This document shows, piece after piece, positions 15,245 to 64,000 of a DNA stretch of 64,000 nucleotides. A program made the position numbers and the translations under genes. The notes below the pieces were generated by a model. That model ran no database searches. It had not been told where the DNA came from and worked only from the letters and a program-made list of their open reading frames with translations. Where the stretch lies: NCBI RefSeq assembly GCF_003991155.1, contig NZ_CP031293.1; one strand, written 5' to 3'. Source of the DNA: Escherichia coli (GTDB taxonomy: Bacteria > Pseudomonadota > Gammaproteobacteria > Enterobacterales > Enterobacteriaceae). Within the stretch, counting starts at the first letter, position 1, and every line of letters begins with the position of its first letter.

Positions 15245-15252
15245 CCACTACA

Positions 15253-16717: not shown

Positions 16718-16841
16718 CTAATACCAAAATAACTCTATGATTAAAAAGGCTGATATATATGCTGGAAGTAGACAGACTACCGGAAACAGTACGACGGTGA
16801 CAGGGTGAACCAAAGGGTTAGGCGCATTTTAAAAAGGTGGT

Positions 16842-17168: not shown

Positions 17169-25223
<8,055 letters not shown>

Positions 25224-31338: not shown

Positions 31339-31496
31339 TATATTTTCGCTATGGGCATACTGTCTATTCATTTAACACATGCACGTCTTATTAGAGCGAA
31401 AAGTGTACATTTCAAAAATGCTTTAATAGGATTTCTAGCTATGATGCTAAAGTATCACTACTTTTATGGATATAAACTAGACAGGAATGATGTGTT

Positions 31497-32818: not shown

Positions 32819-35800
32819 CAGAGGATGCATTGATGCCTGAAGTAAATTGGAAAGTATTCAACGAACTGCCCGGTGCAGCAGATGTGAACTTCGAAAACCT
32901 TTGCCGCGCTCTGGTACGCCGACACTATGGTCGTTTCGGTCGCTTTAAGCAACTCGCAAATCAGCCTGGGGTGGAGTTTCACCTCGAGCTGACGGAGCCT
33001 TGTGATCTCGGTGCGCCACCAGGTTGGATTGGTTGGCAATGCAAGTGGTATGAACTGGTGAATGGACAAGATTTGGGAGCCTCCCGCCGCAACAAGATCA
33101 TCGAAGGTATCGAAAAGACGCGTAAGCATGTCCCTGGAGTGACCAATTGGAAGCTTTGGACTCATCACACGTTAACAAAAGGTGATCAAGAGTGGTTTTT
33201 CGCGCTAGAGCAAGACCGCTTCCCAGAATTGAAGTTAGAACTGCTCACAGCTACGGATATCGAAGATCTTTTGGTCGGACCGGGAGCGCTTTTACGAGAA
33301 ACCTACTTTGGTGAACTGGTTCTAACTCCAGAGCTAATTGCTGAGCAGTATAAGCTTGCAGTGGCCCCATTTAAGAACCGCTACCAGCCAGATGTTCATG
33401 TAGCGGTGGGGGCTGAGGAGAATATATTCAGGCATCTGTGCAGCCAAAACGCATGGGAATCTCTGGAAGAACTCTCAAACGCTTTAAAAAAGAATCATAC
33501 GAGCATTGCTTCGGTTACTGAGCAACTCAAAACTGAGCTCAGGGCTGAAGTTGAATTACTCCTGGCCCGGGTTATTGGGTTGACTGAGTTTATTGATGGC
33601 TTACACGCGGCGCTCGGCAAAGGTGACTTTAACTCTGTATATCAAGCGTTGGTTTCAAATCCGCGTCAGCCGGTACGTTATGACAGGCTACTTTCGAAAT
33701 TGCGTGGAGCGCGCTTTGACGGGGCTCCGTTAACCGCTAATTTGGTTGCAGATATCCACGCGGTTTCGTCAGTTCTCCGCAGTCTGGAGCAATCGATTAG
33801 TGCTCGGGCGGTTGCTGTTCTTGCGGCGGCGGGGGAAGGTAAGTCTGAACTTGCAGTCAAGGTAACACAGCCAGAAGGGGCGTTCCTAGGGGGAATCCTC
33901 CTATTAGGCAAGAATCTTCATTCAGGCCAGGGGCTTGATGATCTCGTATCTGCCTTCAAGATTTCTGGGAGACCAGCAGAAAGTTTTGACCGCCTGATTG
34001 AGGCCGTAGATGCGGCAGGCCAGCGTGCAGGTAAACGCATACCTATTGTTATTGACGGTCTGAATGAGGCGGAAGATCCGAGAAATTGGAAGGATGAATT
34101 ATCCCGAGTGGATGAGCTTCTAAAGAATTTTCCTTATGTCTTGTTAGTTGTCACTCTTCGCAATGAATTCGCCCAGATGTGTCTGCCTGAGGGGTTTCCC
34201 CAAGTTGAACATAATGGGTTTCAGGAAGATCCGAAGACAGCATTTGACAAGTATTTTGAGTACTACAAGATCGATGCTACTGATGCGGATCTACCAGTCG
34301 AACTCTTGCAGCACCCCTTAACACTGAGAATTTTTTGCGAAGTAGCAAATTCTCCTCGTCAGCATATTGTCGGAGTGGAAGCATTGCCCCGTTCGCTTGC
34401 AAGCCTGTTCGAAGCTCACTTTAACAAGGTTGCAGCACGAGTCGCTGAGCTTTCACCGACGATGCATCGCATTTATCAAGATGACGTTCAGGATGCACTA
34501 CTAACGATCGCGGGTCTTCTTTGGGATAACAATGCGAGAAGTGTGGATTTTCAGGCTACACGGATGGCAGTTCGGGATATGGGGTGGGACGACAGTATTA
34601 TTCGTGCACTGGAGTCTGAAGGCATTCTCGTTCGGACTATTTCTCCAGAAGGTAGGCAAGGAGTTGCGTTTGCATACGACCTAATGGCCGGACATATGAT
34701 GGCGCGCAACCTGCTTATGAAGCCTGAACTGGTGCAATGGCTACAAAGCGATGAAGGGAACGCAAAATTTAAATCTCATGGACCTGATTCGCATACCTTC
34801 GCTTATGACGTATTACGGGCTCTGGTTGATCTGTATCCGCAACACTCTGGTAGGCGGCAGCTTTGGCAAGACTTGTCGGATGATATACTCGTTATGAACG
34901 CTCTGCTATTGACGACGCAATCGGATCCAAGATATATCGGGCGGGCTACTGTTGAACGATTTGCTCAAGCTATGCAGGAGTCGAAGCGGTTTGCACAACT
35001 TGCCTTCGAGAGACTACGGAGCACTAGGGCTGCGCTGGCACATCCGTTTGATATGAGCTTTTTGCATGATGTGCTAATGGCTATGTCCAACACTCAGCGC
35101 GATCTTTTTTGGTCAGAGTGGATTCGTCAGAAATCTGAACAAGTTAAAGACGACTTAAAATTCTTGTCGACGAGATGGAAATCGGGTCATCTGGATGAGC
35201 GTGAACTTCGAAGAGTTCGCTGGGTAATGTGGACACTGACGACGACATCCAGAGCTTTGCGGGATATGGCTACCAAAGCCCTGTATGAATTTGCCATCAG
35301 GCGGCCAGAAGAGTTTTTCCGGTTAGCGACGGAGACAATTGTAGTTTCAGACCCATATGTCCCCGAGCGAGTGTTCGCCGCAGCCTACGGTGCAGTCCTG
35401 ACCACTTGGTCGGATATCGATGCGGTAGAGTTACATGATGCGTTGCCACGGTTCGCTCGTGAGATTTACCAAACCATGTTTGCACCTGGCGCTACAGCCC
35501 CTACCTGGCATGCATTACATCAGCAGTACTGTTTGGGAATCATTGCCATTGCGAGGATGGTCGATCCAAATTGTTTTTCAGAGGACGAAGCTGTTTATCT
35601 TCTTCCGCCATTTAGCCATCTGCCTAACGTATTTGAAAGCATTCAACCGTACGATCCAGAGATGATTGGGCGAGCGGAGAGCGCAGCGATTCAAATGGAC
35701 TTTGGTAACTATACGATTGGTGGACTTATTCCAGACAGAGCGAACTACGATGACAGTAATCCGGAGTACCAACAGGTGTTGCAGGCCATTGTTTCTCGAA

Positions 35801-36891
35801 TGCTGATGCTTGGTTATGACCCTGAGCAGTTTGAAGCTGTTGATCGGCAAATGTACTCCGGTTCTCGTATGGGAGATGACAAGCACAAAATCGATCGATA
35901 TGGCAAAAAGTACGGCTGGATAGCTTACTTCGAGATGTGGGGGATACGATACGCGCAGGGCCTCCTTTCCGAAGAACGCAGTGCTCGCCCATCAGATGCT
36001 GATATCGATCCAACGTTTCCGCAAAAAGTAGAGAGTATTAGTTTGTCACTCCCAGTCTTATTTAACGATCCGTCTGTGGATGATGGTGACTGGATCGTGG
36101 GAGGCCCGCTACCTGACTACCGTAGCATCCTTGAGATTACGGAGGTTGATGGTCTGACGGGGCCATGGATCCTACTTGACGGTTTTGTTGAGCAAAATGC
36201 TACCTCGGATGACCGACAGATTTTCACTTTCCTGCGAGGAGTATTCGTAGATAGCCAAGAAGTTGACAATCTATGTAGGTTGTTCATTGATCTTGAATAT
36301 CCTGGCAATAGCGCCATCCCTGATGCTCCTGGCTACTATTACACCTATGCGGGTGAGATGCCTTTCCCGACTATTCCGGGGCTGCTAGTCGCTAATGAAC
36401 AAGAGGATGATAGCGATGAAAATTTGGTGTTCGCAGAAAGATGGTCAGGCAATGGCGTTGCGGTAGATATCACAGTGCAGGACTACAACTGGGAGAGCTA
36501 CCATAGCGTGGAGAACCAAAGCAGCGGTGCGAGCCTGCCCTCAAAGCAACTTTGTGAGGCTTTGAATCTCAGATACTGTGCAAACAAATGGGATTTGCAT
36601 GATGCTGCAGGTGTAGCGTCACTTTACCGCAAAATTGACGAAAATGGTTCGGACGTCAGTGGCTCTGTCAGCTATCTACGTCGTGATCTACTTGACCGCT
36701 ATTTGATGCAATCCGGTAAGGTATTGGTATGGCTTATGTGGGGAGAGCGTGGTTTTCATTACCGGTCCAACAAGACACGCAATTTGCACAGGTATTACGT
36801 GAATCACCAACATATTCACAAGCGTATTCATATCCATCAGATAGCTTCGAGTACTAGTAACCCAAATATTGCGGATGGAGTCGCTATATGA
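32815..36891 (+). CDS. NACHT-like STAND NTPase with an N-terminal Mrr-like nuclease-fold domain and a long C-terminal region (NLR/Avs-like)
   Basis: 1358-aa ORF (TTG at 32815 or ATG at 32833). N-terminus FENLCRALVRRHYG...EPCDLGAPPGWIGWQCKWY resembles an Mrr-cat type D...QxK nuclease. Walker A VLAAAGEGKSE (nt 33823-33849, aa ~340); Walker B IPIVIDGLNEAED (aa ~410) then LLVVTLR. About 850 aa of C-terminus without enzymatic motifs. Confidence 0.8.
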   Translation: MTEDALMPEVNWKVFNELPGAADVNFENLCRALVRRHYGRFGRFKQLANQPGVEFHLELTEPCDLGAPPGWIGWQCKWYELVNGQDLGASRRNKIIEGIEKTRKHVPGVTNWKLWTHHTLTKGDQEWFFALEQDRFPELKLELLTATDIEDLLVGPGALLRETYFGELVLTPELIAEQYKLAVAPFKNRYQPDVHVAVGAEENIFRHLCSQNAWESLEELSNALKKNHTSIASVTEQLKTELRAEVELLLARVIGLTEFIDGLHAALGKGDFNSVYQALVSNPRQPVRYDRLLSKLRGARFDGAPLTANLVADIHAVSSVLRSLEQSISARAVAVLAAAGEGKSELAVKVTQPEGAFLGGILLLGKNLHSGQGLDDLVSAFKISGRPAESFDRLIEAVDAAGQRAGKRIPIVIDGLNEAEDPRNWKDELSRVDELLKNFPYVLLVVTLRNEFAQMCLPEGFPQVEHNGFQEDPKTAFDKYFEYYKIDATDADLPVELLQHPLTLRIFCEVANSPRQHIVGVEALPRSLASLFEAHFNKVAARVAELSPTMHRIYQDDVQDALLTIAGLLWDNNARSVDFQATRMAVRDMGWDDSIIRALESEGILVRTISPEGRQGVAFAYDLMAGHMMARNLLMKPELVQWLQSDEGNAKFKSHGPDSHTFAYDVLRALVDLYPQHSGRRQLWQDLSDDILVMNALLLTTQSDPRYIGRATVERFAQAMQESKRFAQLAFERLRSTRAALAHPFDMSFLHDVLMAMSNTQRDLFWSEWIRQKSEQVKDDLKFLSTRWKSGHLDERELRRVRWVMWTLTTTSRALRDMATKALYEFAIRRPEEFFRLATETIVVSDPYVPERVFAAAYGAVLTTWSDIDAVELHDALPRFAREIYQTMFAPGATAPTWHALHQQYCLGIIAIARMVDPNCFSEDEAVYLLPPFSHLPNVFESIQPYDPEMIGRAESAAIQMDFGNYTIGGLIPDRANYDDSNPEYQQVLQAIVSRMLMLGYDPEQFEAVDRQMYSGSRMGDDKHKIDRYGKKYGWIAYFEMWGIRYAQGLLSEERSARPSDADIDPTFPQKVESISLSLPVLFNDPSVDDGDWIVGGPLPDYRSILEITEVDGLTGPWILLDGFVEQNATSDDRQIFTFLRGVFVDSQEVDNLCRLFIDLEYPGNSAIPDAPGYYYTYAGEMPFPTIPGLLVANEQEDDSDENLVFAERWSGNGVAVDITVQDYNWESYHSVENQSSGASLPSKQLCEALNLRYCANKWDLHDAAGVASLYRKIDENGSDVSGSVSYLRRDLLDRYLMQSGKVLVWLMWGERGFHYRSNKTRNLHRYYVNHQHIHKRIHIHQIASSTSNPNIADGVAI

Positions 36892-37052
36892 GTTACGACT
36901 TCAGAAATCTTTCATCCGCAAACTTTGAGGATCTTGTGCGGGATCTTATCGAAAAAGAAGAAGGGTTCGCTTCGAAGCATTCTCTGTGGGGGCTGATAAT
37001 GATATTGATGGCCGACACGCACATGCTGGAGGGAATGTCAGTTTATAGGTAA
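36888..37052 (+). pseudogene. Short ORF resembling an Mrr-like N-terminal fragment (possible remnant of a further gene)
   Basis: 54 codons overlapping the NTPase stop (ATGA): MSYDFRNLSSANFEDLVRDLIEKEEGFASKH...; the FEDLV..L motif echoes the N-terminus of the NTPase protein; followed by ~1 kb with no ORF. Confidence 0.3.
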
Positions 37053-38005
37053 AACCTTATGAAGGGGCGTCGTTTAGTATACTGATGGCTATTATGAAGT
37101 GTGAGTGGTTGTCTAAAGATAAGCTAGCCCTCACACGCTGTATCAAGCGACCTCTTGTTAGCTTACTCCAGCTAGCAAGAGTAAACTTTCCCCACTCATA
37201 GGGCTATGTTTGAAGTCCGAGTCGGAAATTGGGGGGCAGAAGACATAAAAGGTCTCCTTAAGAAGTCTTCTTGTCTGTACAAAAACTCTTATTTTGACAA
37301 AGAGCATTGTAGTTATTAACAGGCTGATTAATAAATTTAAAAATAAGTCGTCAGGAACACCAGATTAGCTACCCAAATTCTCATGCCGTGGAAGCGGAAG
37401 AAAAATACTCCCCTGAATATCTTCATATCGGATATACATAATAAGCTTGAGGTTGTATATTTGAAGAATTGAGTAGCCAGAGCCTTGTTGACATAAAGCG
37501 ACACGAACAACATGTTACTTAAAATATCACGAGTATATATTCAGACTTGTTTATGTTGCGACATGGATTCTACAGGCAGCTGGCTGAAACAGTGAGTCAG
37601 AAAAATTTACAGGAGCGCCATAGTCATTAATGGATATCCGTAATATGCTGATGCAAAAGGGTAAGGAGTTTGCCGGTAATCTGCGGTGTTAGACGACAAT
37701 TACAAAACGACCTTAGGCGTCAATTACCGCTGAAAAAAGTGACAGATCACTTTCTATAAAATGCTGCCGTATGACCGACAGATTTATTCCGCTTTATAGC
37801 CATGACTGTTCGGTGCTCACTTCGCTGCGCTCCGCCTCAGTCCTGCCTAAAAAGCGTTGCAGGTTAGTTTGTATCGGCCTAATGAAAGGCTGTTTTAGCG
37901 AAGCGTAAATGTGACATCTTATCTGGTCTAATCTCTTTGCGATAATTGACGCAAAAGCATGGGCTGTAATTGTCACGCAATACTGCGGCAAGTCTCATGA
38001 TGATG

Positions 38006-38100
38006 CCTCTGACAGGGATCTCCGTAGCCATTAACTGGTCGATTGGTAAGCTAAAACAAAAAAATTGAATTTGTCAAGACAGCCATAATGACTACCATTT
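38006..38100 (-). repeat. att-like repeat copy D (degenerate), internal boundary of the composite island
   Basis: Minus-strand reading: tggtagtcattatggctgtcttgacaaattcaatttttttgttttagcttaccaatcgaccagttaatggctacggagatccctgtcagagg; the tRNA-derived end is truncated and diverged. Confidence 0.65.
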
Positions 38101-38264
38101 TCGTCTCTGCTTTTCCATCCTGAAATTAATGGCTATCATATTCGCAATAGACAACATCATCTTACTTGCACTCAACTATAACTAATGCTGAGTGCAAGAA
38201 ACGGGGATTATATCCCCTATCAAGGACCTGTTGAAATATTAGTCTGGAATTTCGAGGCTGTAAT

Positions 38265-38789
38265 TTAAATTGCTCCATTTGCCTTAGCATCAAGAATGAA
38301 TTTTTCATACTCGCGTTCTGCAACAACAACAGGGACTGTTTTGCGATTATATAATTGCATTAATAACAATGTACGATGCCTTCCATCAGAAACACCAAAT
38401 TCACTGTTAGATGCCTCTGGATATTCAACATACCCTTTTGATATATATTTTTTGATTTTATGCCATCTACGCGGATCAATGCAGAATGCTCCATCTCCTA
38501 ATTTTTTAAGAAAGGCTAGCCCATCGACATATACAATCCTGGTAGGACAATGCCGATAGCGTACAGGAAGGGTAAAGATAATATTTTCAAAAACAGGGAA
38601 AGTAAGACCTGAATCATCTTTAGGTATTGACTCAAAGGAATCAAAAGGATATTTTGTCATGTAATCATTTAGTTTTTCAATATCCATATTGGAAAACCAC
38701 GATACTTCCGGGAGAAATTTTTTATCTCTTTCTCTAATTTCTTTGATCGAATCTCCAAATATATCATCTAACCTCCACCCCTCTTTCAT
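38265..38789 (-). CDS. Hypothetical protein with a DGxHR motif (ParB/Srx-like fold suspected)
   Basis: 174-aa AT-rich ORF; ...EFGVSDGRHRTLLLMQL... resembles the DG(Q/H)HR core of ParB-like nuclease-domain proteins; last gene of the orphan Rhs array. Confidence 0.4.
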   Translation of the reverse strand: MKEGWRLDDIFGDSIKEIRERDKKFLPEVSWFSNMDIEKLNDYMTKYPFDSFESIPKDDSGLTFPVFENIIFTLPVRYRHCPTRIVYVDGLAFLKKLGDGAFCIDPRRWHKIKKYISKGYVEYPEASNSEFGVSDGRHRTLLLMQLYNRKTVPVVVAEREYEKFILDAKANGAI

Positions 38790-38833
38790 TTATGCTCCTA
38801 AAATAATGTGATATTAAAAATTCTGTTAATAAG

Positions 38834-39349
38834 TCAAATTTTATGAATACTAATAAGGGGTTTGCACCACTCAACCGAGAGAATATCTTCCATTTTATAA
38901 AAAACGCCATAATCACTTTGATTATAATGCTCAATTTTATCAGCCATTTGTAATCTAATTTTGTCTTTGTAAATTCTACTTCGGATCAAACTGGCGAAAT
39001 TATATATATCAACCCTCAGATTGATAATATTATTTCTATCTGGGCGTCTTTCATGTAACATATCACGAAAAGAAACAAGTAACGTAATTAATTTTTTAGC
39101 CTCATTATTTTTAATATATCCTTTTTTAAAGATGCATAATATTAATTTTGAAATTAAGCTGATTTTTATTTGTAAATTATAGATAGCATTATCGTTTGTC
39201 AGGCAGGTTATGACTTCAATTACTTCACGTGAGCGAATATAATTGTCCAGTGCTTCCCATTCATCCATTCCTCGATGCATTGAAAGTTCCAATTGCCTTA
39301 AAAAAGCATATAACCCCAATAAGAAGTCGCTATTGCAGTATATTTTCAT
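38834..39349 (-). CDS. Putative immunity protein for Rhs fragment B
   Basis: 171-aa AT-rich ORF overlapping by 4 nt the stop of the Rhs C-terminal fragment. Confidence 0.5.
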   Translation of the reverse strand: MKIYCNSDFLLGLYAFLRQLELSMHRGMDEWEALDNYIRSREVIEVITCLTNDNAIYNLQIKISLISKLILCIFKKGYIKNNEAKKLITLLVSFRDMLHERRPDRNNIINLRVDIYNFASLIRSRIYKDKIRLQMADKIEHYNQSDYGVFYKMEDILSVEWCKPLISIHKI

Positions 39350-40835
39350 GAATCACATCCTTTAATAAAACTCATTATTCGTGACCAAAAAGAGTCTTTT
39401 TTGTATATAGGGTTTTTATCGTTTAATGGTAAAGGATCGTCTGTTGGTATAACGGCTGTATTTCTTGGCCCAACATTTGTTTTAGTAAGTGAATCTTTGG
39501 AAGCATCAAACTCTACATAAGAACCATTCTTCCATGCCCCTGTTTCTGCACCTGCCGTTTTAGGATCTCCAAATGGCTCCACCTCAACGTGTACACCAAC
39601 AGGATTGCCTCTGGCAGGGTTGATAGACCCATCCTTGCTAATTCCATCAATACCCTCTGTTGAAGTATGATGTCTAACTCTAACAGTATCGTCACCAGTT
39701 AACCCTAACGGATCAATAATTTTTAGCGGATTAAATACATATCCATACAGGCAATCCCCACCTCTCAGCCCCATCGGATCAGCACACAGATACTGCCCCG
39801 TATCGCAATCATAATACCTGAATCGGTTATAGTACAGGCCTGACTCAACATCCTCGTACTGCCCCGGAAAACGTAACCGGCATGTGGGCGCATCTTCTTT
39901 ACTGATGCCTTCCTCACGCCCCCAGAGCTGCTGCTTGCCTTTCCAGACTATCAGACCCTCTTCGGTCAGCAGTTCTTGTACGCGGCCAGTTGTGTCTGTT
40001 ACCGCATAATGCAGTTGCCCCTTTTCATAACGCGCAAACGGCGTGAAATCTCCCGGCTCGTATATCCAGCGGATGGCGTTTTCATCTTCCGGTTTGCCGT
40101 CAGCGCCAACCGGAATTTCCGCCGTCAACTGGTCGCCGTTCCAGTGAAAATCCATGCCGCGTTTGTCGCGGCTGGTACAGCGCTTGCTGATGCGCCTGCC
40201 GAACGGGTCATACTTATATTCCCAGCGTTCGCCCTCCGGTGTTTCCAGTCCGGTCAACTGGCTGCGTGCATCCCATTTATAACGCCATTCCAGTGGGCGA
40301 TAACCCCCTTTATCCACCAGTTTCTGTACCAGCCTGCCGTTAACATCATATTTCCAGGTGATGTTGTGCGCATTCACCACCCGGACAAATCTCCCGTCTT
40401 CCCCTTTTCCGGTGTCCGGGTTGATGCGATGCGTCGAGTGCCGCCAGCCTTCATGTTCCCGCGATACCACACGACCATGCTGCTGTTGCTGGTGCGTCTC
40501 GCTTTCCAGTACGTTATTCACCCTGATCTGGCGACGGGTAATGTTCAGGTTTTTATCGTAAGTGAACAGCTCCTCGCACAGCGGAAACTGGCTGGAATCA
40601 CCCGTCCAGGTGGCGTGGCTTATCTGGTCGTTTGCCGTGATGGTGTTGAACATGGAGCCGCGCAGCGAGTCGGCGATTGCGGTGAGGTTATACGCTTTGT
40701 CGTAGCTTCGCTGCGTCGGGAGGTTTCCATGCCGCACAGGTCGTGCTCAAATGTCAGCGGGGCATGGTCCGCTATTCGCCATGACGTAAGATGCCCCATC
40801 AGGTCGCGGGTGAAGCGTTCTGTGATACCCTCAGC
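39346..40835 (-). pseudogene. 5'-truncated Rhs fragment B (last ~350 aa of core plus a distinct C-terminal toxin tip)
   Basis: ORF 39346-40737: ...GLYYNRFRYYDCDTGQYLCADPMGLRGGDCLYGYVFNPLKIIDPLGL then a unique ~120-aa tip. DNA 39690-40835 is homologous to 10150-11340 of the main Rhs gene, with a frame disruption near 40700-40760. Confidence 0.8.
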
Positions 40836-41303: not shown

Positions 41304-41763
41304 AGTTTTTTATTCTGTCTGGCTAACTCATATAGTTGTTCAGTGATGACCTTTTTATCATAGCCTGCATTTGTTAAGATTTTTCTTAGGTCATCTATAT
41401 CCCTTTTCAAATATTGTTCTTTTGTCAAACCTCGAACAAATGCTCGTCTGAATGTCCAGGTAAGAGCATGTAAATCTTTACGCAGATTTATCGTAATTCC
41501 CTTACATTTTGTTGTGGGGCTTACCGCATCCTGAATGGCATGATGAGGTGTATGAGTTGCATTAAGCCCTGTTTTACCATTCGCATAAATTGAAGAACCA
41601 TATGTACCAACGTATAAATCTTCTCCTGGACCAGCTAACAATCCCAAGGGATCAATCCATACCAGTGGATTTGGAGCGTAATTGTAAAGGTTTACTCCCC
41701 CCGACAGTCCAATCGGATCAGCACACAGATACTGTCCTGTCTCGCAATCATAGTACCGGAACC
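41282..41763 (-). pseudogene. Rhs C-terminal fragment A, truncated at its 5' end by IS3 copy 2
   Basis: ORF 41282-41812 runs into the IS; ...YRFRYYDCETGQYLCADPIGLSGGVNLYNYAPNPLVWIDPLGL then a unique ~130-aa tip. Confidence 0.8.
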
Positions 41764-43013
<1,250 letters not shown>

Positions 43014-43016
43014 CCA

Positions 43017-43385
43017 CTACAATGAGAGCATAAGTACACCTGCCGTCATTTCTGGTACGGCAACGCCCCCCGGTGTATAAGCTGTCCCGTTAATGATGAT
43101 GTCACAGGCGGGTTTCAGGGGGGCGAGGTCGCTTTCGCGCAGTACCGGAGATGTGTTCATCTCCCCGGCATACTCATCTTCCACACACAGCGGTAGCGGC
43201 GGGTTTTCGATAAGTTGGGTTTGCCACTGACCATTTTCGTCCCGTTGCAGCCGGAAGCCCGTTTTCATGGCGATAACGCGGTGACGTTCGCTATGTTTAT
43301 CATCCATCGCATATTCTATCGCTGAAAACGGCGTCAGGTTACGAAATTCCATATTGCACCCCGATCCCGTCTGTACCTGTCGCAA
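43017..43385 (-). CDS. Hypothetical 121-aa protein (possible effector-associated adaptor); last codons now replaced by IS sequence
   Basis: MEFRNLTPFSAIEYAMDDKHSERHRVIAMKTGFRLQRDENGQWQ...; the reading frame runs 5 nt into IS copy 2. Confidence 0.5.
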   Translation of the reverse strand: MRQVQTGSGCNMEFRNLTPFSAIEYAMDDKHSERHRVIAMKTGFRLQRDENGQWQTQLIENPPLPLCVEDEYAGEMNTSPVLRESDLAPLKPACDIIINGTAYTPGGVAVPEMTAGVLMLSL

Positions 43386-51220: not shown

Positions 51221-52156
51221 TTAAAACATCTGTCTTGAACCAGAACTAATTTGCACAGGCATTCCCGATCGACGTTGCAACGCAGCATTTGCGCGATTTA
51301 CATCAACTTCTTGCCCGTTGATAAACGCCCGCAAAGATGGGGTTACCGGCAATGGTACTTTTCGGTCAGACTCATATTCTGCACGATTGCGCGACAGCGG
51401 CTCATGAACTTCCAGCCACTTTGAACCATCCGGTTCCGTTGTGTATTTCACTGGCTGATCAATAATTTGTACACGAGTGCCTACAGGAACATTATCAAAC
51501 AGATATTTGATATCGTCATTGCGCAGACGAATACAGCCCTGACTTACCCGGAGCCCAATACCAAAATTGGCATTGGTACCGTGGATGGCATATAGCCTGC
51601 CAATATAAATCGCATACAGCCCCATGGGATTATCAGGCCCCGCAGGAACAAATGCGGGCAAACTCTCCCCTCGTTTCGCATATTCGCGCCGAGTGTTCGG
51701 CGTTGGCGTCCAGGTTGGAGCTTCTTGTTTACGTTCAACGGTAGTCACCCAGTTACGCGGGGTTTCTCGCCCAGCCTGGCCGATACCAATAGGAAAGACT
51801 TCCACAGTATTACTGTCTGGTGGGTAGTAATAAAGACGCATCTCAGCGACGTTAACCACAATCCCTTTACGAACAGTGGCGGGCAAAATCAGTTGCTGCG
51901 GAATGGTGAGTTGCGAACCTGACTTCGGCAAGAAAACATCAGCGCCCGGATTCGCTTCCAGCATGTTACTTAACCCTTGCCCGTATTGTGCGGCAAAAGT
52001 CTCCAGCGGCTGGGTATTGTGATCAGGAACAGTTACAGTAAACGACTGCCCCACTAAACGGCTACCCTCTGGAGGTAATGGATAAGTTACCGCCAGGCTA
52101 GTATGGCTGGCAAAAAGCAGAGCAAATGAGCAAAGAATATTTACACGACGCATCAT
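51221..52156 (-). CDS. ldtA: L,D-transpeptidase (YkuD domain)
   Basis: 311-aa ORF with signal peptide and catalytic region ...[29 protein letters not shown]...; synonym erfK. Confidence 0.85.
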
Positions 52157-52217
52157 GTCCCTTTCCTATGTCGCGAAAGCTATCCATTAAGTATAGCTTT
52201 TATCAGACTTTTCGTTT

Positions 52218-53297
52218 TTAACTGTTCAAATCAGAAGTCGTATTCCCCGGTAGAACAATATTACTGGCAGCAAGTTCGCCCATGTTGTTGTATATCGCAC
52301 AAGCAGCTTCGATGATGGGCATCGCCAGAGCTGCGCCACTCCCCTCACCTAAACGCATCTCCATATTGAGATAAGGCTCCAGCCCCAAATGCGACAGCGC
52401 TATACGCGCCCCTTTTTCTGCCGACAGGTGAGAAGGAATGAGATACGGTTTGATTGCAGGAGACATCTGGCAGGCTGCGAGCGCAGCAGCATAAGAAAGA
52501 AATCCATCCAGCAACACGGGTAAACCGCAGGAAGCAGCGCCTAACATCACGCCAGCCATTCCGACCAAATCAAATCCACCCACTTTTGCCAGAACATTAA
52601 CGCCATCCTGCGGATTTGGCTGATTCAACGTAATCGCCCGGCGCACAACATCAATTTTATTAGCCAGTTTATCTGTCGGCAGGTTTGCGCCAATCCCAAC
52701 CACTTCTTCAGGATCCCGGCCAGTGATTGTGCTGACTATTGCTGCTGCCGGTGTCGTGTTTGCCATCCCCAGTTCACCTACACCAAACAGCGTGACACCG
52801 TTTTTTGCCAGCTCCCGCGTATAACATATGACGTCCAAAAGCAACTTTTCAGCCTGACGGCGACTCATTGCCGGAGCTGAAGCAATATTGCCGCTACCTC
52901 GTGCGACACGCATGTTGATAAGCCCGGGGATAGGCTCAGCAGTATCAATACCAACATCAATTACGTGGACGTTAGCGCCCGCTTGTGCTGCCAGCACACA
53001 CACGCCGGTTGTTCCGCGGGTCATATTTTCAGCCTGAATGGCTGTGACTTCTTTTGGGGAAATAGCGACCCCTTCCTCCCAGACGCCGTGATCGGCACAC
53101 ATAACCAGTACCGCTTTTTTGCCCACATGCGGTATGCCATTCAACCCCGGCATTCCCGCCAGTTGTACGCCAAGCGCCTCCAGCCTTCCCAGGCTACCAA
53201 CAGGTTTGAGTAACCCGTCAATATGCCGTTGTGCACGCGACATAGCGGCAGGATCGATGGCAGGGATCGTATTCAGTAAATTGGCAAGTGTTTGCAT
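52218..53297 (-). CDS. cobT: Nicotinate-nucleotide--dimethylbenzimidazole phosphoribosyltransferase
   Basis: 359-aa [43 protein letters not shown]... Confidence 0.85.
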
Positions 53298-53308
53298 GTC
53301 ACGTCTCT

Positions 53309-54052
53309 TTATAGCAGTGCCAGCAGGAAGACCAGTTCACCAAGCTCTATGGCTGCTCCCAGCGTATCGCCGGTTTGCCCGCCCAGCGTACGTTTGAGAA
53401 GCTGACCGAGGATGAAAATCGCCACCATCGTCACCACCATAGCAGCCACACCATGCATACCCGGCAATAATACGGCAGCAAAAATAGCGGCTAAGCCGAG
53501 TGTGACGCAGGTTTGTCGCCCATCAATTTTGCCAATGAACACATTGCCAAGCCCTTCTTCCCGCGCATAACGATGACGATACATCAATAATGCGGCAGTC
53601 CCGCGGCTGACCGCACATGCTGCCGCCAGCGATGCAAGGATCGGTTCGCCACGCAGAGCCAACTCGCTTAACACCAGAATCTTTGCCAGTACCACAAAAA
53701 TCAATGCCAGACCGCCGTGGGTGCCTAAACGGCTATCACGCATGATTTCCAACATGCGATCGCGGCTACGTGCAGAAAATACGCCATCACAGGTATCAGC
53801 GAGGCCGTCCAGGTGGAATCCCCCGGTCATCAGCGCCAGCATAAGTACGCTAAACAGTGCCGCCAGTGGTACGTCACACCATGCCTGCAGCACCATGAAG
53901 ACCAGCCCGCTAATCGCGCCAAGCAATAATCCAATCAAAGGAAAAGTAATAATACCGCGAGAATAATGCTCGAAATCCAGTCCCTGGGACCAGCGACGCG
54001 GTACAGGCAGACGCGTAATAAATGAGAGCATCGCCCAAAATAATTTACTCAT
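53309..54052 (-). CDS. cobS: Adenosylcobinamide-GDP ribazoletransferase (cobalamin synthase)
   Basis: ORF 53309-54088; start likely [18 protein letters not shown] (54052); polytopic membrane protein. Confidence 0.85.
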
Positions 54053-54594
54053 TTGATTTTTACTCCAATACACGAAACCACCAGCCATACTTCATTTGCC
54101 GCAGCGGCCAACTGCTGGTTTACCCGCCCGGCAATATCACGAAAATGTCGTGCCAGACGACTCTCCGGCACAATCCCCATTCCCACTTCGTTAGTCACTA
54201 ATACAACCTTTGCGGGGCAACGTTGGCAGGCAGCAATCAACGACTGAATCTCAGCATTAATCGCCTGTTCCATCGCCTGATAATCCCATTCATCAGGGTC
54301 TTTATCGCCGCCATAATCAAACAACAGATTAGTCACCATTGTGGTAACGCATTCCAGCAACACAGCCTCATTCGGGTTAATGTCTGCATGAATTAATTCA
54401 TCAAGATGTTGCCAGCGCTCCACTGTGCGCCAGTGCGCCGGGCGGCCTTTCCGATGATGTTCTATCCGTGCAGCCATCTCATCATCAAGGATTTGCGAGG
54501 TGGCGATATACAGAACCTGTGAAGAGTCCCCAATAAGCGCTTCTGCGTGGCGACTCTTCCCGCTCCGTGCTCCACCTGTCACCAAAATCATCAT
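54049..54594 (-). CDS. cobU: Adenosylcobinamide kinase / adenosylcobinamide-phosphate guanylyltransferase
   Basis: 181 aa; P-loop [11 protein letters not shown]. Confidence 0.85.
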
Positions 54595-54727
54595 ACCGAC
54601 TCCTGATTCAATTGTATGATGGTATTCATTGAACAGAACAATGGATCCCCCACCGTTGCTGACCGCAAAACATTTACGCGATTAATACTGCGCGTAATAT
54701 AATTAAAAATCCAGCATTCTCAATCCA

Positions 54728-55234
54728 TTACGAAAGAAGATGGCATTGCGGAATAGCCAGACTTCCTCGTGTTAACGTCCGACAAAATGCGTCATTGACA
54801 GCGGTTTCTCTGGCATGACAGATTTCATTCAGATAATGGATTAATGCTACAGCCCCACCAGCCGGACCAGTCAGCAAACGGGCATTGTGTTCTGTAATCA
54901 AAATTACCGTCGTTCCCTCAGAATGAGCGAGCCATTCTGGTACGGATATCTCGCTTTCAGCTGCTATCAATAGCAGCACTGAATAATCGCTATACGCATC
55001 TGATAACGATTGCACAGGCCCACCGTCAAAAGGCTGGAAATCTTGCTGCCAGTCCTCACCAACCAAACAGGTTATTGGCAATATTTCCGCCAGATGTTTC
55101 GCCAGATCCACATCTCCAGATAAGAGGCAAAAAAGAGCTATCGATTCGGGTTTTATCGTTTTCATGCCCCTCGCCCTCCACTTAATTTCCTGTAATGGCG
55201 GTCTGGTTGATAAGCCATGAAACAAGATTGCCAC
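54728..55234 (-). CDS. Hypothetical protein at the position where the cbi operon would begin
   Basis: 168-aa ORF immediately downstream of a cobalamin riboswitch; no P-loop or other CbiA-like motif recognised. Confidence 0.35.
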   Translation of the reverse strand: MAILFHGLSTRPPLQEIKWRARGMKTIKPESIALFCLLSGDVDLAKHLAEILPITCLVGEDWQQDFQPFDGGPVQSLSDAYSDYSVLLLIAAESEISVPEWLAHSEGTTVILITEHNARLLTGPAGGAVALIHYLNEICHARETAVNDAFCRTLTRGSLAIPQCHLLS

Positions 55235-55299
55235 ACCTTAAGTGCAGCCCTGGTGCCTGTCGGCACTGCGATGAAAGAACTAAATGATGCCGCCATACC

Positions 55300-55530
55300 C
55301 TGATCCTTTCAGGGTGGTAGGGGTATAAAGACGCGCCTGTACTCTACCGGACGCTTCCGGGCAACCCACTTCCCACCGAAGTTGTTGGTATTGACTGACT
55401 GGCTGGTCTTCTGGCTTAGCGTCATCCTCTCCCGACCTTCCCAATCTCGCGATCAGTGGCATTTTCGGGTTTGTCAGCATTACAGCAGCGGGGGCTGCGA
55501 GGGATTTTCACCCTCTTCCCAGGCACAAAT
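55300..55530 (-). promoter_or_regulatory. Cobalamin (B12) riboswitch
   Basis: Minus-strand reading contains GGTGAAAATCCC, GCAGCCCCCGCTGCTGTAA and a B12-box-like AAGCCAGAAGACCAGCC (14 of 16 to consensus). Confidence 0.6.
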
Positions 55531-55649
55531 GTGCCACACCTGTCAGCGTATGTTATGAGCTGATTTCACTTTTCCCATAACAGGGAAATAACGTTAATTA
55601 TTCATTCCAGAGTTTATTTAAACCGTCCTCTTTTTTTGGGGCATTTACT

Positions 55650-56564
55650 CTATACCGTTTCCATCGCCGCATTATCACTCACTTGCTGTCGATACACCTG
55701 CGGCGTAACCTGATAAGTCTGACGGAAAACTTTGCAAAAATAACTTGTTTGCGAAAAACCTAAATTACGCGCAATGCTGGCGATGCTCCAGTCACTATGG
55801 CACAGTAACTCACGAGCGCTGGCCATCCGTTGTTGGTTTACCCACGCATTAAACCCGATTCCATGGTATTTCTTAAATAACTTACTGAAATAATAAGGGC
55901 TTAGATAAACGTGCGAGGCGACATCTTCCAGACGCAAATCGTCTGATAAATGCGCATCAATATAACGTAAAGCTTTTTTCATTTTATTGTCGTGGGGACC
56001 AGGCGCACGAGTCTGGCGCAACGAATCTGACTGAGATTTGTTCTCTTTAATAACCACAAAATTGAGTTGTTTTTTTAGGCAATTTTCTACAATCAACTTC
56101 AACAAATCCGCAGAGGCCATAACTCTTGAGTAATCCATCTCAGGGACTTTGCGAAATTCATTAAGTAATTCGGGATCTGCCTGCCAGCAATCATCGACAT
56201 TCAGAATATCGACCAAATCGACATCATCATTACGCAGACGAACTTGCCCGCACAATACAAAACCAACTAAATGTCCGGCGATTACCAGTGGAATAGAGAA
56301 ATCGGTTAATCCGGCATGACAGCGATAAATACAAGGCTGATCGGATTTAGAGGCTTCCAGCCCCCCACAACGATCGCTCATGCGACATCGAGTGCTCATC
56401 TGAGGGTGTTGCCGCATCATCTGACAAAATGGAGTGAAGTTAAACAGCTCGGAAATTTCATCGCCGTGAATATTGACCACGACAACCGCAAGGCTGGTCG
56501 CCTGCGCAAAATCCTGCGCGATTTTATTAATGAGTTCTGAATTAAGTGTCGCCGCAGAAATCAT
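55650..56564 (-). CDS. pocR: AraC-family regulator of the pdu/cob regulon
   Basis: 304-aa ORF with C-terminal AraC HTH (...LRLEDVASHVYLSPYYFSKLFKKYHGIGFNAWVNQQRMASARELL...); divergent from the pdu operon. Confidence 0.8.
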   Translation of the reverse strand: MISAATLNSELINKIAQDFAQATSLAVVVVNIHGDEISELFNFTPFCQMMRQHPQMSTRCRMSDRCGGLEASKSDQPCIYRCHAGLTDFSIPLVIAGHLVGFVLCGQVRLRNDDVDLVDILNVDDCWQADPELLNEFRKVPEMDYSRVMASADLLKLIVENCLKKQLNFVVIKENKSQSDSLRQTRAPGPHDNKMKKALRYIDAHLSDDLRLEDVASHVYLSPYYFSKLFKKYHGIGFNAWVNQQRMASARELLCHSDWSIASIARNLGFSQTSYFCKVFRQTYQVTPQVYRQQVSDNAAMETV

Positions 56565-56766
56565 GATAAAACCTCCCAGTTAATTTATTGTTATAGCAAA
56601 ACAATTGTTTTACATTTAATCTTCACATCATCCTTGATGATTTACTGACGAGAAGCACAAAGGACAATAACAAAAGCCTCCGTGAAGCGGGAGACTTTTT
56701 AATAAGTTCGGAAAGCAGATCACAAACAGTAAAAAAATAAACGTTTATAACTGCCAGATTATTTCA

Positions 56767-57576
56767 TTATTCGCTGATTTCTTTAGGCGTTACACTATTG
56801 ACAGGTAAATTCTTTGCAATGAGATAGCGATAAATCGCCGCACCAACACATGCCCCAATGATCGGTGCAATAATGGGTACAATGAAATAAGGAATATTGC
56901 GTCCACCAGTCATCGCAATTTCCCCCCAACCCGCAAACCAGGTGAAAATTTTAGGTCCAAAATCACGCGCTGGATTCATGGCAAAACCGGTTAATGGTCC
57001 GGTAGAAGCACCAATAACAGCAACCAGAATACCAATAAGTAAAGGCGCAAGCGGTCCTTTGGGTACGCCATTACCGTCATCGGTCAACGCCATAATCAAC
57101 CCCATTAACATGGACGTTATGACCACTTCGACCAACGCAGCTTGCCATACATTAATCGCCGCTGCTGGATAAGTACTGAAGATACTGGCGAGTTGTAAAC
57201 TTTCTGCGCTACCACGCACTATATTGTGAGCAGATTCAAAATCGATAAACAAACTGCTGTAGAGAGAATATGCCAGAACCGCACCACCAAAGGCACCCGC
57301 TAATTGCGCCACACAAAATGGCAGCACTTTACGGGCTGGGAAAGAGGCAAACAGCCACAGAGCAATGGTAACTGCCGGGTTGAGATGAGCGCCGGAAATA
57401 CCTGCCGTAAGGTAAACAGCAAGCGAAATCCCTAACCCCCATATGATACAAATTTCCCACAGTCCCAGACTTGCCCCGGCAACTTTCAGGGCGCACAAAC
57501 AACCAATGCCAAAAAAGAGGAACAGTCCGGTGCCCAAAAACTCGGCAACGCATTGCGCCTTGAGTGAATCATTCAT
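56767..57576 (-). CDS. pduF: Propanediol diffusion facilitator (MIP/aquaglyceroporin family)
   Basis: ORF 56767-57615; start likely MNDSLKAQ (57576); two NPA motifs (HLNPAVT, MNPARD). Confidence 0.8.
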   Translation of the reverse strand: MNDSLKAQCVAEFLGTGLFLFFGIGCLCALKVAGASLGLWEICIIWGLGISLAVYLTAGISGAHLNPAVTIALWLFASFPARKVLPFCVAQLAGAFGGAVLAYSLYSSLFIDFESAHNIVRGSAESLQLASIFSTYPAAAINVWQAALVEVVITSMLMGLIMALTDDGNGVPKGPLAPLLIGILVAVIGASTGPLTGFAMNPARDFGPKIFTWFAGWGEIAMTGGRNIPYFIVPIIAPIIGACVGAAIYRYLIAKNLPVNSVTPKEISE

Positions 57577-58009
57577 AGTGACACCTTCTTTACGGAGTTT
57601 TTCTTTATCAGCCAACTATGCGCTGATTGTTGTGTATACCGAGCGCAACTATAAAAAATTGCTCTGCAGAAAATATTGCCAACATGCATGACAGACTCGT
57701 GTAAAAATCGTGCTAACATAACAAATTATTGTCATTGCCGAATCATGCAACACAGCTTTAATCAGTGTTGAAGTAATAATTTCCACCAAACTTTTACAAT
57801 AAAAAATTGCCATCATGACATAATAAAATTGAAACAAATATCACAGTTCCTTCCTCGAACCAAACTCAACGAAATATTATTCGCGATTAAACTCACTAGC
57901 CAACGCAATTAATTCACATTGAAACATCCACAAAACAACCAATAAATTAACAACATATAGTTCATAAAAGCAATTTTATTATATTTGTTCTCTAGGTAAT
58001 GACTCCAAC

Positions 58010-58513
58010 TTATTGATAGTGTTTTATGTTCAGATAATGCCCGATGACTTTGTCATGCAGCTCCACCGATTTTGAAAACGACAGCGACTTCCGTCCCAGC
58101 CGTGCCAGGTGCTGCCTCAGATTCAGGTTATGCCGCTCAATTCGCTGCGTATATCGCTTGCTGATTACGTGCAGCTTTCCCTTCAGGCGGGATTCATACA
58201 GCGGCCAGCCATCCGTCATCCATATCACCACGTCAAAGGGTGACAGCAGGCTCATAAGACGCCCCAGCGTCGCCATAGTGCGTTCACCGAATACGTGCGC
58301 AACAACCGTCTTCCGGAGCCTGTCATACGCGTAAAACAGCCAGCGCTGGCGCGATTTAGCCCCGACGTATCCCCACTGTTCGTCCATTTCCGCGCAGACG
58401 ATGACGTCACTGCCCGGCTGTATGCGCGAGGTTACCGACTGCGGCCTGAGTTTTTTAAATGGCGGAAAATCGTGTTGAGGCCAACGCCCATAATGCGGGC
58501 GGTTGCCCGGCAT
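58010..58513 (-). CDS. insB: IS1 InsB (transposase catalytic part)
   Basis: 167 aa: [64 protein letters not shown]... Confidence 0.9.
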
Positions 58514-58707
58514 CCAACGCCATTCATGGCCATATCAATGATTTTCTGGTGCGTACCGGGTTGAGAAGCGGTGTAAGTGAACTGCAGTTGCCATGTTTTA
58601 CGGCAATGAGAGCAGAGATAGCGCTGATGTCCGGCGGTGCTTTTGCCGTTACGCACCACTCCGTCAGTAGCTGAACAGGAGGGACAGCTGATAGAAACAG
58701 AAGCCAC
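58432..58707 (-). CDS. insA: IS1 InsA
   Basis: 91 aa: [43 protein letters not shown]... Confidence 0.9.
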
Positions 58708-58863
58708 TGGAGCACCTCAAAAACACCATCATACACTAAATCAGTAAGTTGGCAGCATCACCTGTTCTCTATTAATTTTTCTCATTAGCCGAGTAAGTCA
58801 GCCATTCTTTTTCCTCGCTTTTTTTTATAGTCATATCGTCAAAAAAATCCAGGCGAGGTCTTT

Positions 58864-62332: not shown

Positions 62333-62851
62333 ATGAATACCGATGCAATTGAGTCGATGGTCAGGGACGTGTTGAACCGCATGAACAGTTTACAGGGTGC
62401 AGCTCCTGTTTCTGCGGTCCCCAGCGCGTCAATACAGAGCGCCAAAGTGACGGATTACCCGCTGGCAAATAAACATCCGGAATGGGTTAAAACAGCAACC
62501 AATAAAACGCTCGACGATTTCACTCTGGAAAATGTGCTCAGCGATAACGTCACCGCCCAGGATATGCGCATTACCCCTGAAACATTGCGTATTCAGGCCG
62601 CGATTGCCAGAGATGCTGGTCGCGATCGCCTGGCGATGAATTTCGAACGCGCCGCTGAGCTTACCTCAGTACCGGATGATCGCATCCTCGAAATCTACAA
62701 TGCGTTACGCCCTTATCGTTCGACTAAGCAAGAACTTATTGCCATTGCTGACGATCTTGAACGGCGTTATCAGGCCAAAATTTGTGCTGCATTTGTCCGT
62801 GAAGCTGCGGAACTTTATGTCGAGCGCAAAAAACTGAAAGGCGACGATTAA
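62333..62851 (+). CDS. pduE: Propanediol dehydratase, small subunit
   Basis: 172-aa ORF following pduD. Confidence 0.85.
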   Translation: MNTDAIESMVRDVLNRMNSLQGAAPVSAVPSASIQSAKVTDYPLANKHPEWVKTATNKTLDDFTLENVLSDNVTAQDMRITPETLRIQAAIARDAGRDRLAMNFERAAELTSVPDDRILEIYNALRPYRSTKQELIAIADDLERRYQAKICAAFVREAAELYVERKKLKGDD

Positions 62852-62887
62852 GGACGAACTATGCGATATGACGATTAAGGACGAACT

Positions 62888-64000
62888 ATGCGATATATAG
62901 CAGGCATTGATATCGGCAACTCATCAACAGAGGTTGCGCTGGCAACGCTCAGTGCAACTGGAGAGTTGTCGTTCGTGAGTAGCGCCCTGGCGGAAACCAC
63001 CGGAATTAAAGGTACGTTGCGTAACGTCCATGGTATTCAGGAGGCGCTCGCACAGGCAACGAAAAAAGTCGGCATCAATGTTAGCGATATTTCGCTTATT
63101 CGTATCAACGAAGCAACTCCGGTCATTGGTGATGTGGCGATGGAAACCATCACTGAAACTATCATCACCGAATCAACCATGATCGGTCACAACCCGAAAA
63201 CGCCGGGCGGAGTGGGGCTGGGCGTAGGGCTCACCATCACTCCGCAAGAGTTATTAACATGCCCGGCGGACACACCCTACATTCTGGTGGTGTCATCGGC
63301 ATTTGATTTTGCCGATATCGCAACAATGATAAACGCCTCCGTACGCGCCGGATATCAGCTGACTGGCGTTATTCTGCAACGCGACGATGGCGTACTGGTC
63401 AATAACCGCCTGGAAATTCCTCTCCCTATTGTTGATGAAGTCCTCTACATCGATCGTATTCCGCTCGGCATGCTGGCTGCGATTGAAGTTGCCGTTCCCG
63501 GGAAAGTTATCGAAACCCTGTCTAACCCGTATGGGATTGCCACCGTTTTCGCCCTCAATGCTGAAGAGACTAAAAATATTGTTCCTGTCGCGCGGGCGCT
63601 AATCGGCAACCGTTCAGCAGTGGTAGTGAAAACGCCTTCTGGCGACGTTAAAGCCCGTTCGATACCCGCCGGAAATATCGAACTGCTTTCTGCCGGGCGC
63701 ACAACGCGGGTTGATGTAGCTGCTGGTGCCGATGCCATTATGAAAGCGGTCGGTGAGTGCCCAAAACTGGAAAACGTGACGGGAGAACCTGGCTCCAACA
63801 TCGGCGGAATGCTGGAACATGTTCGCCAGACCATGGCTGAACTGACCAACAAACCCAGCCACGAAATTTTTATTCAGGATTTGCTGGCGATAGATACCTC
63901 TGTCCCCGTCAACGTAACCGGTGGTCTGGCAGGTGAATTTTCACTGGAACAGGCTGTGGGTATTGCCTCTATGGTGAAATCCGACCGTCTGCAAATGGCG
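62888..64000 (+). CDS. pduG: Diol dehydratase reactivase, large subunit (3' partial, runs off the window)
   Basis: Frame open from ATG 62888 (MRYIAGIDIGNSSTEVALATL...) to the window end; position after pduE. Opposite-strand ORFs here are judged spurious. Confidence 0.75.
   Translation, partial: MRYIAGIDIGNSSTEVALATLSATGELSFVSSALAETTGIKGTLRNVHGIQEALAQATKKVGINVSDISLIRINEATPVIGDVAMETITETIITESTMIGHNPKTPGGVGLGVGLTITPQELLTCPADTPYILVVSSAFDFADIATMINASVRAGYQLTGVILQRDDGVLVNNRLEIPLPIVDEVLYIDRIPLGMLAAIEVAVPGKVIETLSNPYGIATVFALNAEETKNIVPVARALIGNRSAVVVKTPSGDVKARSIPAGNIELLSAGRTTRVDVAAGADAIMKAVGECPKLENVTGEPGSNIGGMLEHVRQTMAELTNKPSHEIFIQDLLAIDTSVPVNVTGGLAGEFSLEQAVGIASMVKSDRLQMA

Follow-up and report, generated by a model that had tools for sequence, protein, structure and literature searches.

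The window analysed here, a stretch of 64,000 nucleotides of Escherichia coli chromosomal DNA (contig NZ_CP031293.1), ends inside the pdu operon, and this analysis concerns the junction between two genes of that operon, pduE and pduG. The original prediction, made from the sequence of the window, described a perfect 27-bp tandem duplication at this junction, with a unit that takes in the pduE stop codon, the Shine-Dalgarno (SD) site and the first codons of pduG and with a five-codon upstream open reading frame (ORF) in its first copy, and it suggested either a change in translational coupling to pduG or an assembly artefact. The junction is composed of the following features.

62333-62851, plus strand: pduE, diol dehydratase small subunit, 172 aa (from the ORF list and the annotation), ending in K-G-D-D-TAA
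62843-62869, plus strand: repeat copy 1, consisting of GAC GAT (the D-D of PduE), TAA (the pduE stop), the SD, a 6-nt spacer and ATG CGA TAT (62861-62869)
62849-62854, plus strand: SD UAAGGA of copy 1, overlapping the pduE stop, with a 6-nt spacer to the ATG at 62861
62861-62878, plus strand: mini-ORF of five codons, MRYDD plus TAA (from translation), a product of the duplication, with its stop 9 nt before the pduG ATG
62869/62870, no strand assigned: novel joint, ...GCGATAT/GACGATT..., diagnostic for the derived two-copy allele
62870-62896, plus strand: repeat copy 2, the same as copy 1; its GAC GAT TAA closes the mini-ORF and its ATG CGA TAT are codons 1-3 of pduG (62888-62896)
62876-62881, plus strand: SD UAAGGA of copy 2, overlapping the stop codon of the mini-ORF
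62888-64000, plus strand: pduG, diol dehydratase reactivase large subunit, first 371 codons, beginning MRYIAGIDIGN; the gene is cut by the window end

Tandem Repeats Finder (TRF) and a repeat search both recovered the duplication, and the unit GACGATTAAGGACGAACTATGCGATAT is present twice head-to-tail, at 62843-62869 and 62870-62896, with a match of 100 % (TRF period 27, 2.0 copies, score 108). The bases bordering it break the repeat (c/t before, a/g after), which leaves exactly 2.0 copies. This is the sole tandem repeat with a score of at least 50 in the window, and the chance expectation for a perfect adjacent 27-nt repeat is about 3.6e-12 per 64 kb. The predicted anatomy and gene identities were right: the final two codons of pduE and its TAA (62843-62851) sit within copy 1, and the unit closes with the first three codons of pduG. 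Translation of the first copy gave the expected M-R-Y-D-D-stop (ATG CGA TAT GAC GAT TAA), which is in frame with pduG, the two ATGs being 27 nt apart with the TAA between them. The sequence over the joint is GAACTATGCGATATGACGATTAAGGACG in the two-copy allele and AAAGGCGACGATTAAGGACGAACTATGCGATATATAGC in its single-copy counterpart. No microhomology was found at the duplication borders, as AAAGGC/GACGAT and GCGATAT/ATAGCA (slash at the border) have no bases in common; an origin by slippage between microhomologies was dropped for this reason.

The start of pduG at 62888 is supported from two sides. The NCBI annotation pipeline starts the gene at the second ATG in two-copy genomes, and residues 1-370 of PduG align one to one with residues 1-370 of 2D0O_A (E = 7.5e-199, phmmer against the PDB), the crystallised large subunit of the Klebsiella oxytoca reactivase (DdrA). 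The annotation gives pduE the same position and the same end in two-copy and one-copy genomes, and both proteins, PduE and PduG, are unaltered by the duplication. Moreover, all 21 pdu genes from pduA to pduV are intact in two-copy genomes and carry no pseudogene flags.

Distribution and origin of the two-copy allele

We used a sample of 5,426 complete E. coli genomes, 640 of which hold the pduE-pduG junction. An identical two-copy stretch of 551 bp is carried by 29 of the 640 and a 524-bp single-copy version by the other 611, and four of the single-copy genomes are identical over the 551 bp save for the 27-bp gap. A 48-nt query centred on the novel joint, which cannot seed in single-copy DNA, matched the same 29 of the 5,426 genomes with one match per genome. 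Exactly two copies are present in every carrier (29/29), and no three-copy allele was found among them. The joint (as a 28-nt pattern) also occurs in the metagenome contig OHAB01001143.1, which matches the window at 100 % identity for 3.4 kb. The carriers have human or animal hosts (cattle, pigs, sheep, chickens, dogs, one cat and one mink) or come from wastewater and surface water, and their countries include at least the USA, Japan, Korea, China and Thailand.

These genomes bear directly on the suspected artefact of assembly or polishing in the window sequence. The carriers were sequenced by PacBio combined with Illumina (MRY15-117, MRY15-131), by PacBio alone (CREC-544) and as an Illumina and Nanopore hybrid (AR13438), and the same joint was reproduced under all three strategies, in 29 complete genomes from various laboratories, hosts and countries and in a metagenome. 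A repeat of 27 bp is, besides, shorter than any read type and so not ambiguous for assembly. Nothing speaks for an artefact beyond the general possibility raised at the outset; we rejected it and give it practically no credence. The 27-bp duplication is genuine and heritable.

The comparison with other pdu operons that the original prediction had suggested found a single copy in the 611 E. coli genomes and in all five Escherichia representatives (E. coli, E. albertii, E. whittamii and two further species clusters), the latter reading TAA-ggacgaact-ATG with a 9-nt spacer. The mini-ORF is absent from all of them, and the duplication did not recur in any other lineage or species among the 640 pdu-positive E. 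coli genomes or 80 species representatives. Because the other E. coli genomes and the five representatives are single-copy, this comparison establishes the duplication as derived, having arisen once from the Escherichia arrangement of TAA, 9 nt and ATG.

The carriers form a tight cluster, at 99.6-100 % identity over 25 kb, with the next genomes near 95 %. In the 5.2-kb block from pduA to pduG, 28 of the 29 match at 5201/5201 positions without a single substitution among them, and the remaining one has a 1-nt indel. In the latter genome, NZ_CP115358.1 (CUVET19-1704), the match covers 5,200 bases instead of 5,201, and the indel reflects a frameshift in one of the pdu genes or else an error of assembly. 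Four carriers (MRY15-117, MRY15-131, CREC-544 and AR13438) have been published as sequence type 457 (ST457), which is labelled phylogroup F in one paper. Across the genomes compared, the duplication is a mark of E. coli ST457 and of recombinant derivatives of this lineage, and the 28-nt joint picks out the ST457 pdu haplotype cleanly from one locus (29 of 5,426 genomes, no false positives). We found no description of this allele in the literature; one paper mentions both ST457 and pdu and does not connect them.

The two-copy allele sits on at least three downstream haplotypes, and for this reason the duplication is not brand new. In 27 genomes the distinctive ST457 haplotype runs throughout the cob-pdu region. 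The other two, UID2309220003 and 980-2, have a second haplotype. Between the cobalamin riboswitch and a point about 1.2 kb into pduG it is identical to that of the 27; it contains a 1.8-kb divergent patch in cobS-cobU-hypothetical (15791-17589 of the examined stretches), and downstream of the point in pduG (position 25303 onward) it diverges by about 1 % over more than 20 kb. This breakpoint in pduG falls just past the window end. The metagenome contig tracks the second haplotype for 7.2 kb and then diverges (from about 7262), which gives the third downstream haplotype. The flanks of the his-rfb region are known to recombine, and the mosaic is the pattern that would be expected from recombination of the flanks around a vertically inherited block.

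A single-copy strain in the carriers' haplotype

One strain, UID2309220009 (urine, Bangkok), has a single copy of the repeat, with the junction at about 24053-24079 of one examined stretch (a second stretch was examined at 33078-39323), in a haplotype that is otherwise that of the carriers. Against MRY15-117 it has 0 mismatches over 24.5 kb, and the protein accessions are the same from cobT to tsuA. Single-nucleotide polymorphisms (SNPs) in 75 kb of the pdu-his-rfb-wca region did not place the strain, as 25 kb held none and the next 50 kb only three private SNPs and one indel. Its private differences at positions 32049, 33555 and 36129 of a further examined stretch are two G-to-A changes at GATC and a 1-nt deletion in CCAGG. 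From their sequence contexts these are probably nanopore-type errors at Dam/Dcm sites, and the assembly is to be treated with caution. The same differences yield a frameshifted manC-like gene. The strain also has a private yersiniabactin island (high-pathogenicity island, HPI) at the tRNA-Asn adjoining ldtA.

A 9.3-kb island with radical-SAM, DUF6375 and NACHT genes (window 31189-40511) proved more informative on the position of the strain. It is identical in UID2309220009 and 20 two-copy genomes; the second haplotype has it with 2-3 SNPs, and seven further two-copy genomes lack it. UID2309220009 has the full 'group A' architecture of the 20 genomes, including the same IS3 and pseudogenes. At window position 32591, within a 21-nt context that is otherwise identical across the compared genomes, the window strain, MRY15-117 and UID2309220009 have T, and the genomes of the second haplotype and the outgroup islands of MLI107 and APEC20/16 have G. 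Because the second haplotype and both distant outgroup islands share the G, the T is derived, and it groups UID2309220009 with some two-copy strains to the exclusion of others, so that the precise loss of one copy is the most economical account. Tandem repeats are intrinsically prone to such precise loss. On balance we lean towards UID2309220009 being a precise revertant that has lost one repeat copy. Against this it has to be said that the proposed reversion rests on one polarised SNP together with shared structure, and that recombination, or a repeat collapsed in a nanopore-only assembly, would be alternatives.

The same strain could be taken as the sign of a reversible copy-number switch, in which one and two (or more) copies toggle at appreciable frequency and make PduG heterogeneous, in the manner of a contingency locus. 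A single-copy junction in an otherwise identical haplotype, grouped with two-copy strains by a derived SNP, would fit such a switch, as would the proneness of tandem repeats to loss. On the other hand, the carriers uniformly have two copies and none has three, typical contingency repeats look quite unlike two copies of a 27-nt unit, and an exact re-gain without microhomology is very improbable, which leaves at most a one-way loss. Among close isolates the copy number is two in 29 of 29 carriers and one in a single relative, and this is not the variation that characterises phase-variable contingency repeats. We regard the switch as very improbable.

Regarding the island itself, the radical SAM gene, the DUF6375 gene and a 4,059-nt gene for a NACHT-domain protein (window 31189-37000) make up a three-gene unit adjoining yeeN that looks like a defence system. 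It is very rare in E. coli, being found only in the 20 ST457 genomes, UID2309220009 and the two genomes of the second haplotype, with distant versions (91-94 % identity) in MLI107 and APEC20/16. Two copies of one IS3-family element (window 13995-15252 and 41760-43021) flank RHS/PAAR/Ig-like-protein islands around three tRNA-Asn genes. In the genomes of the second haplotype the second IS3-family copy is inverted and adjoins a deletion of about 6 kb, from DUF2169 to part of the integrase.

Translation of pduG and the fate of the allele

Transcription of the pdu operon yields one mRNA (PMC4600919), and in purified compartments PduG is about 5-fold rarer than PduE (76 against 376 copies, PMC7181861), so that the pduE-pduG junction is a step-down point. 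In E. coli there is a class of 203 gene pairs with spacers of +9 to +12 nt and the SD in the spacer, for which independent initiation or weak coupling has been considered; reinitiation in native E. coli pairs goes down by 40-80 % at +14 nt and is almost gone at +38 nt (PMC10666635). The duplication takes the distance from the pduE stop to the pduG start from +9 to +36 nt, and this distance alone should break any direct coupling of pduG to pduE. The inserted unit is, at the same time, a complete stop-SD-start module, and the stop of the mini-ORF stands exactly where the ancestral stop stood with respect to the ATG of pduG. The distances from the pduE stop to the mini-ORF ATG and from the mini-ORF stop to the pduG ATG are both +9, within the stop-to-start range of about -8 to +10 nt for termination-reinitiation (PMC10666635). 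The SD:anti-SD energy is -5.8 kcal/mol at both starts, and the spacer and first three codons are also the same. To open the initiation region of pduG is predicted to take 6.4 kcal/mol with one copy and 7.7 kcal/mol with two.

With this arrangement, ribosomes leaving pduE would meet an ATG at +9, read five codons, stop at a TAA that overlaps the second SD and meet the pduG ATG at another +9. Translation of pduG could then follow two routes, either independent initiation at its own unchanged SD and ATG or a restart, 9 nt downstream, of ribosomes that have finished the mini-ORF, which would arrive there from pduE or load afresh at the first SD. As 27 nt is shorter than the footprint of a ribosome, the two starts should exclude each other for fresh 30S loading and initiating ribosomes would compete, although the loss through this competition could be offset if those that load at the first site are handed on. 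Delivery of ribosomes to a coupled gene by a short upstream ORF is an accepted idea that is used in bicistronic designs and has been proposed for MIRUs, interspersed repetitive units of mycobacteria (PMC12548453), and in axe-txe a minigene of two codons has a positive effect on txe in cis (PMC8708949). Judging by sequence, the mini-ORF possibly relays ribosomes to pduG. The stop-SD-start geometry of the junction appears to be recreated, not destroyed; the change in coupling suggested by the original prediction may occur, and we would not expect a large effect.

We also considered whether the duplication acts on the RNA. The predicted fold of 62810-62930 is no better than that of shuffled sequences (z = 0.42), no Rfam family matches the junction, and no hairpin-forming inverted repeats were found across it; regulation based on RNA structure was rejected on these grounds. 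No promoter-like or terminator-like site made by the duplication was found, and an internal promoter or terminator was rejected as well. A leader-peptide attenuator of the trpL/hisL/ermCL type was excluded because there is no RNA structure with alternative hairpins, inverted repeat, terminator-like site or Rfam family to go with it.

The spacer between pduE and pduG is variable elsewhere. Its length ranges between about 4 nt and more than 150 nt across other genera and between 9 nt and more than 150 nt within Enterobacterales, and some of the insertions look like ERIC/IRU elements. Because of this wide variation, which includes repeat-element insertions, the junction seems to tolerate change. 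Since it tolerates change, and since the allele has persisted through the expansion of the lineage and through recombination, the net effect of the duplication would be small, and a change in PduG of less than two-fold seems somewhat likelier to us than a larger one. As the overall explanation we favour, as likely, a derived duplication of single origin that leaves the proteins intact, changes PduG modestly on balance and makes an allele close to neutral; as a tandem repeat, the duplicated unit could be precisely lost again.

Several considerations weigh against this near-neutral explanation. Neutrality is here inferred from sequence. Gene pairs of the +9 spacing class may initiate independently (PMC10666635), in which case the start of the mini-ORF would mainly compete with that of pduG, with less PduG as a possible outcome. 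Hitch-hiking, a weak benefit and a weak cost, finally, would account equally well for the fixation of the allele in a lineage that is successful worldwide.

As to the pduE-pduG spacers of other genera, insertions of 54-150 nt are present in Klebsiella michiganensis, Yersinia, Citrobacter amalonaticus S646 and Intestinirhabdus alba. Three of the insertions have the motif gaagtacgacgagaaaagg in common, and the spacer of C. amalonaticus S646 contains an 11-bp tandem duplicate of its own (agtctgaagtt/agtctgaagta).

The window strain differs from the relatives compared with it in the control region of the operon.

57995-58762, minus strand: IS1, 768 bp, InsA/InsB, inserted in the control region between pduF and pduA, 93 bp upstream of the pduA ATG

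The element is bounded by a 9-bp target duplication (tgttctcta, 57986-57994 and 58763-58771) and neither MRY15-117 nor UID2309220009 nor any of the 20 best-matching genomes has it. In the spacer between pduF and pduA a consensus scan, which was not above background, gave a single forward promoter-like match, placed just upstream of the site of insertion. IS1 may cut the pdu operon off from its promoter, or be polar on the operon, in the window strain. If a PocR-dependent promoter lies upstream, such polarity may affect the whole operon far more than the 27-bp duplication does. Further upstream, at about 52000-57600, the window contains cobT-cobS-cobU, a hypothetical ORF of 438 nt, a cobalamin riboswitch, pocR and pduF; the annotated riboswitch (about 55384-55558) lies directly upstream of the small hypothetical ORF, which is followed by cobUST. 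The E. coli pdu locus has no cbi genes for B12 synthesis, and its operon ends at pduV, without pduW or pduX.

The insertion enters into the two explanations in which the allele is not neutral. The duplication could be a mildly deleterious lesion, in which the mini-ORF start occludes that of pduG, coupling to pduE is broken by the +36-nt distance, PduG falls and reactivation is impaired; it would then represent early pdu decay under relaxed selection in a lineage that rarely uses propanediol. The near abolition of reinitiation at about +38 nt (PMC10666635), two starts closer together than one ribosome footprint, the rise of 1.3 kcal/mol in the opening energy of the pduG start region, the IS1 in front of pduA in the window strain and the lack of cbi genes in E. 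coli pdu loci would all be compatible with a lesion. It is difficult to reconcile with the 21 intact genes in two-copy genomes and with zero substitutions in the 5.2-kb pdu block of 28 genomes; moreover, the mini-ORF stop recreates the ancestral +9 geometry, and the IS1 is private to one strain. We consider a lesion rather improbable.

Conversely, the duplication may have been selected as an adaptive tuning of the ratio of PduGH reactivase to PduCDE dehydratase, improving the use of 1,2-propanediol in the ST457 niche. The ratio would be raised if a second ribosome entry site fed pduG, or lowered by occlusion. The allele is present in 29 of the 30 sampled genomes of a globally distributed lineage and was kept through several events of flanking recombination, and its architecture resembles engineered leader-cistron designs that stabilise downstream translation; in axe-txe, too, a natural minigene raises downstream expression (PMC8708949). 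However, a clonal lineage fixes neutral changes by hitch-hiking, the duplication did not recur in the 611 other pdu-positive E. coli genomes, and the predicted change in accessibility of the initiation site is small. The high variability of the spacer across genera argues against a tight constraint, one member of the lineage has seemingly lost the duplication with no other change, and the IS1 in the control region of the window strain hints at weak selection on pdu. Tuning of this kind seems unlikely to us. A bolder version, in which a working ribosome-relay cistron was born in one step from native sequence, reset the ratio of reactivase to dehydratase, is reversible by precise loss of a copy and constitutes a tuning allele in pandemic ST457, would be quite a long shot. 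If true, the relay cistron would be a newborn natural counterpart, within an operon of E. coli, to bicistronic-design or MIRU elements.

Comparison with known systems

In kind, the duplication resembles the short tandem duplications that mark clones, similar to variable-number tandem repeats (VNTRs). It shares with them perfect head-to-tail copies of native sequence, single-copy relatives, restriction to one clonal lineage, stable inheritance and an apparent precise loss. Unlike duplications of the slippage type, which usually show microhomology at their borders, the GACGATTAAGGACGAACTATGCGATAT duplication has none, and unlike plain VNTR-like markers it copies a stop-SD-start module in full, which gives it a defined consequence for translation.

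The units of MIRUs are 46-101 bp long. MIRUs form a dispersed and apparently mobile family with -4-nt overlaps and variable copy number, whereas the pdu duplication is a single local event with +9 spacings and two copies. The likeness between them lies in a repeat between the genes of an operon, with an internal small ORF that can pass ribosomes downstream and so keep the impact of the insertion to a minimum, and a length that is a multiple of 3 (PMC12548453). As regards the features by which a MIRU would be recognised, each carrier genome has the pdu joint a single time, the 27 bp of the unit are native sequence, and the spacings are +9.

Leaders of the bicistronic design (BCD) are usually longer than five codons and end in an overlapping stop and start. 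The pdu mini-ORF has five codons and a 9-nt gap, follows pduE within an operon instead of standing at a 5' end, and is of accidental origin. Also, the second SD does overlap the stop of the leader, yet stop and start are 9 nt apart. The resemblance to BCD leaders and other ribosome-delivering upstream ORFs (uORFs) consists in a short ORF with its own SD and start (UAAGGA at 62849-62854, ATG at 62861) (PMC12548453) and in the SD of pduG at the end of the leader ORF, by which terminating ribosomes would be positioned near the downstream start. Set against the defining features of BCD, MIRU and uORF systems, the duplication is neither dispersed nor mobile, and its stop and start do not overlap.

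Two further comparisons concern very short ORFs. Like the two-codon mini-ORF of axe-txe (PMC8708949), where frame and distance matter, that of pdu lies just upstream of the downstream cistron; the axe-txe mini-ORF is conserved, and the pdu mini-ORF, with five codons, is a recent by-product. The drop-off of peptidyl-tRNA and the toxicity that are the feature of lambda-bar-type minigenes find no support in the pdu mini-ORF.

A further parallel is the native junction. The ancestral pduE-pduG arrangement (+9 nt, SD overlapping the stop) is a textbook case of the class of +9 to +12 nt, and the derived allele is two such junctions in series; a natural example of a duplicated junction is not described in the paper that defines the class (PMC10666635). 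Near-isogenic alleles with one +9-nt junction and with two in series exist in nature, and this contrast could help to settle the question of reinitiation or independent initiation for the +9 to +12-nt pairs of E. coli (PMC10666635). The duplication illustrates how a mini-cistron can arise without damage to an operon; it is no new kind of system, and its practical value is modest. It is ordinary in kind, a clone-marking short tandem duplication, and similar to a leader mini-cistron in its consequence.

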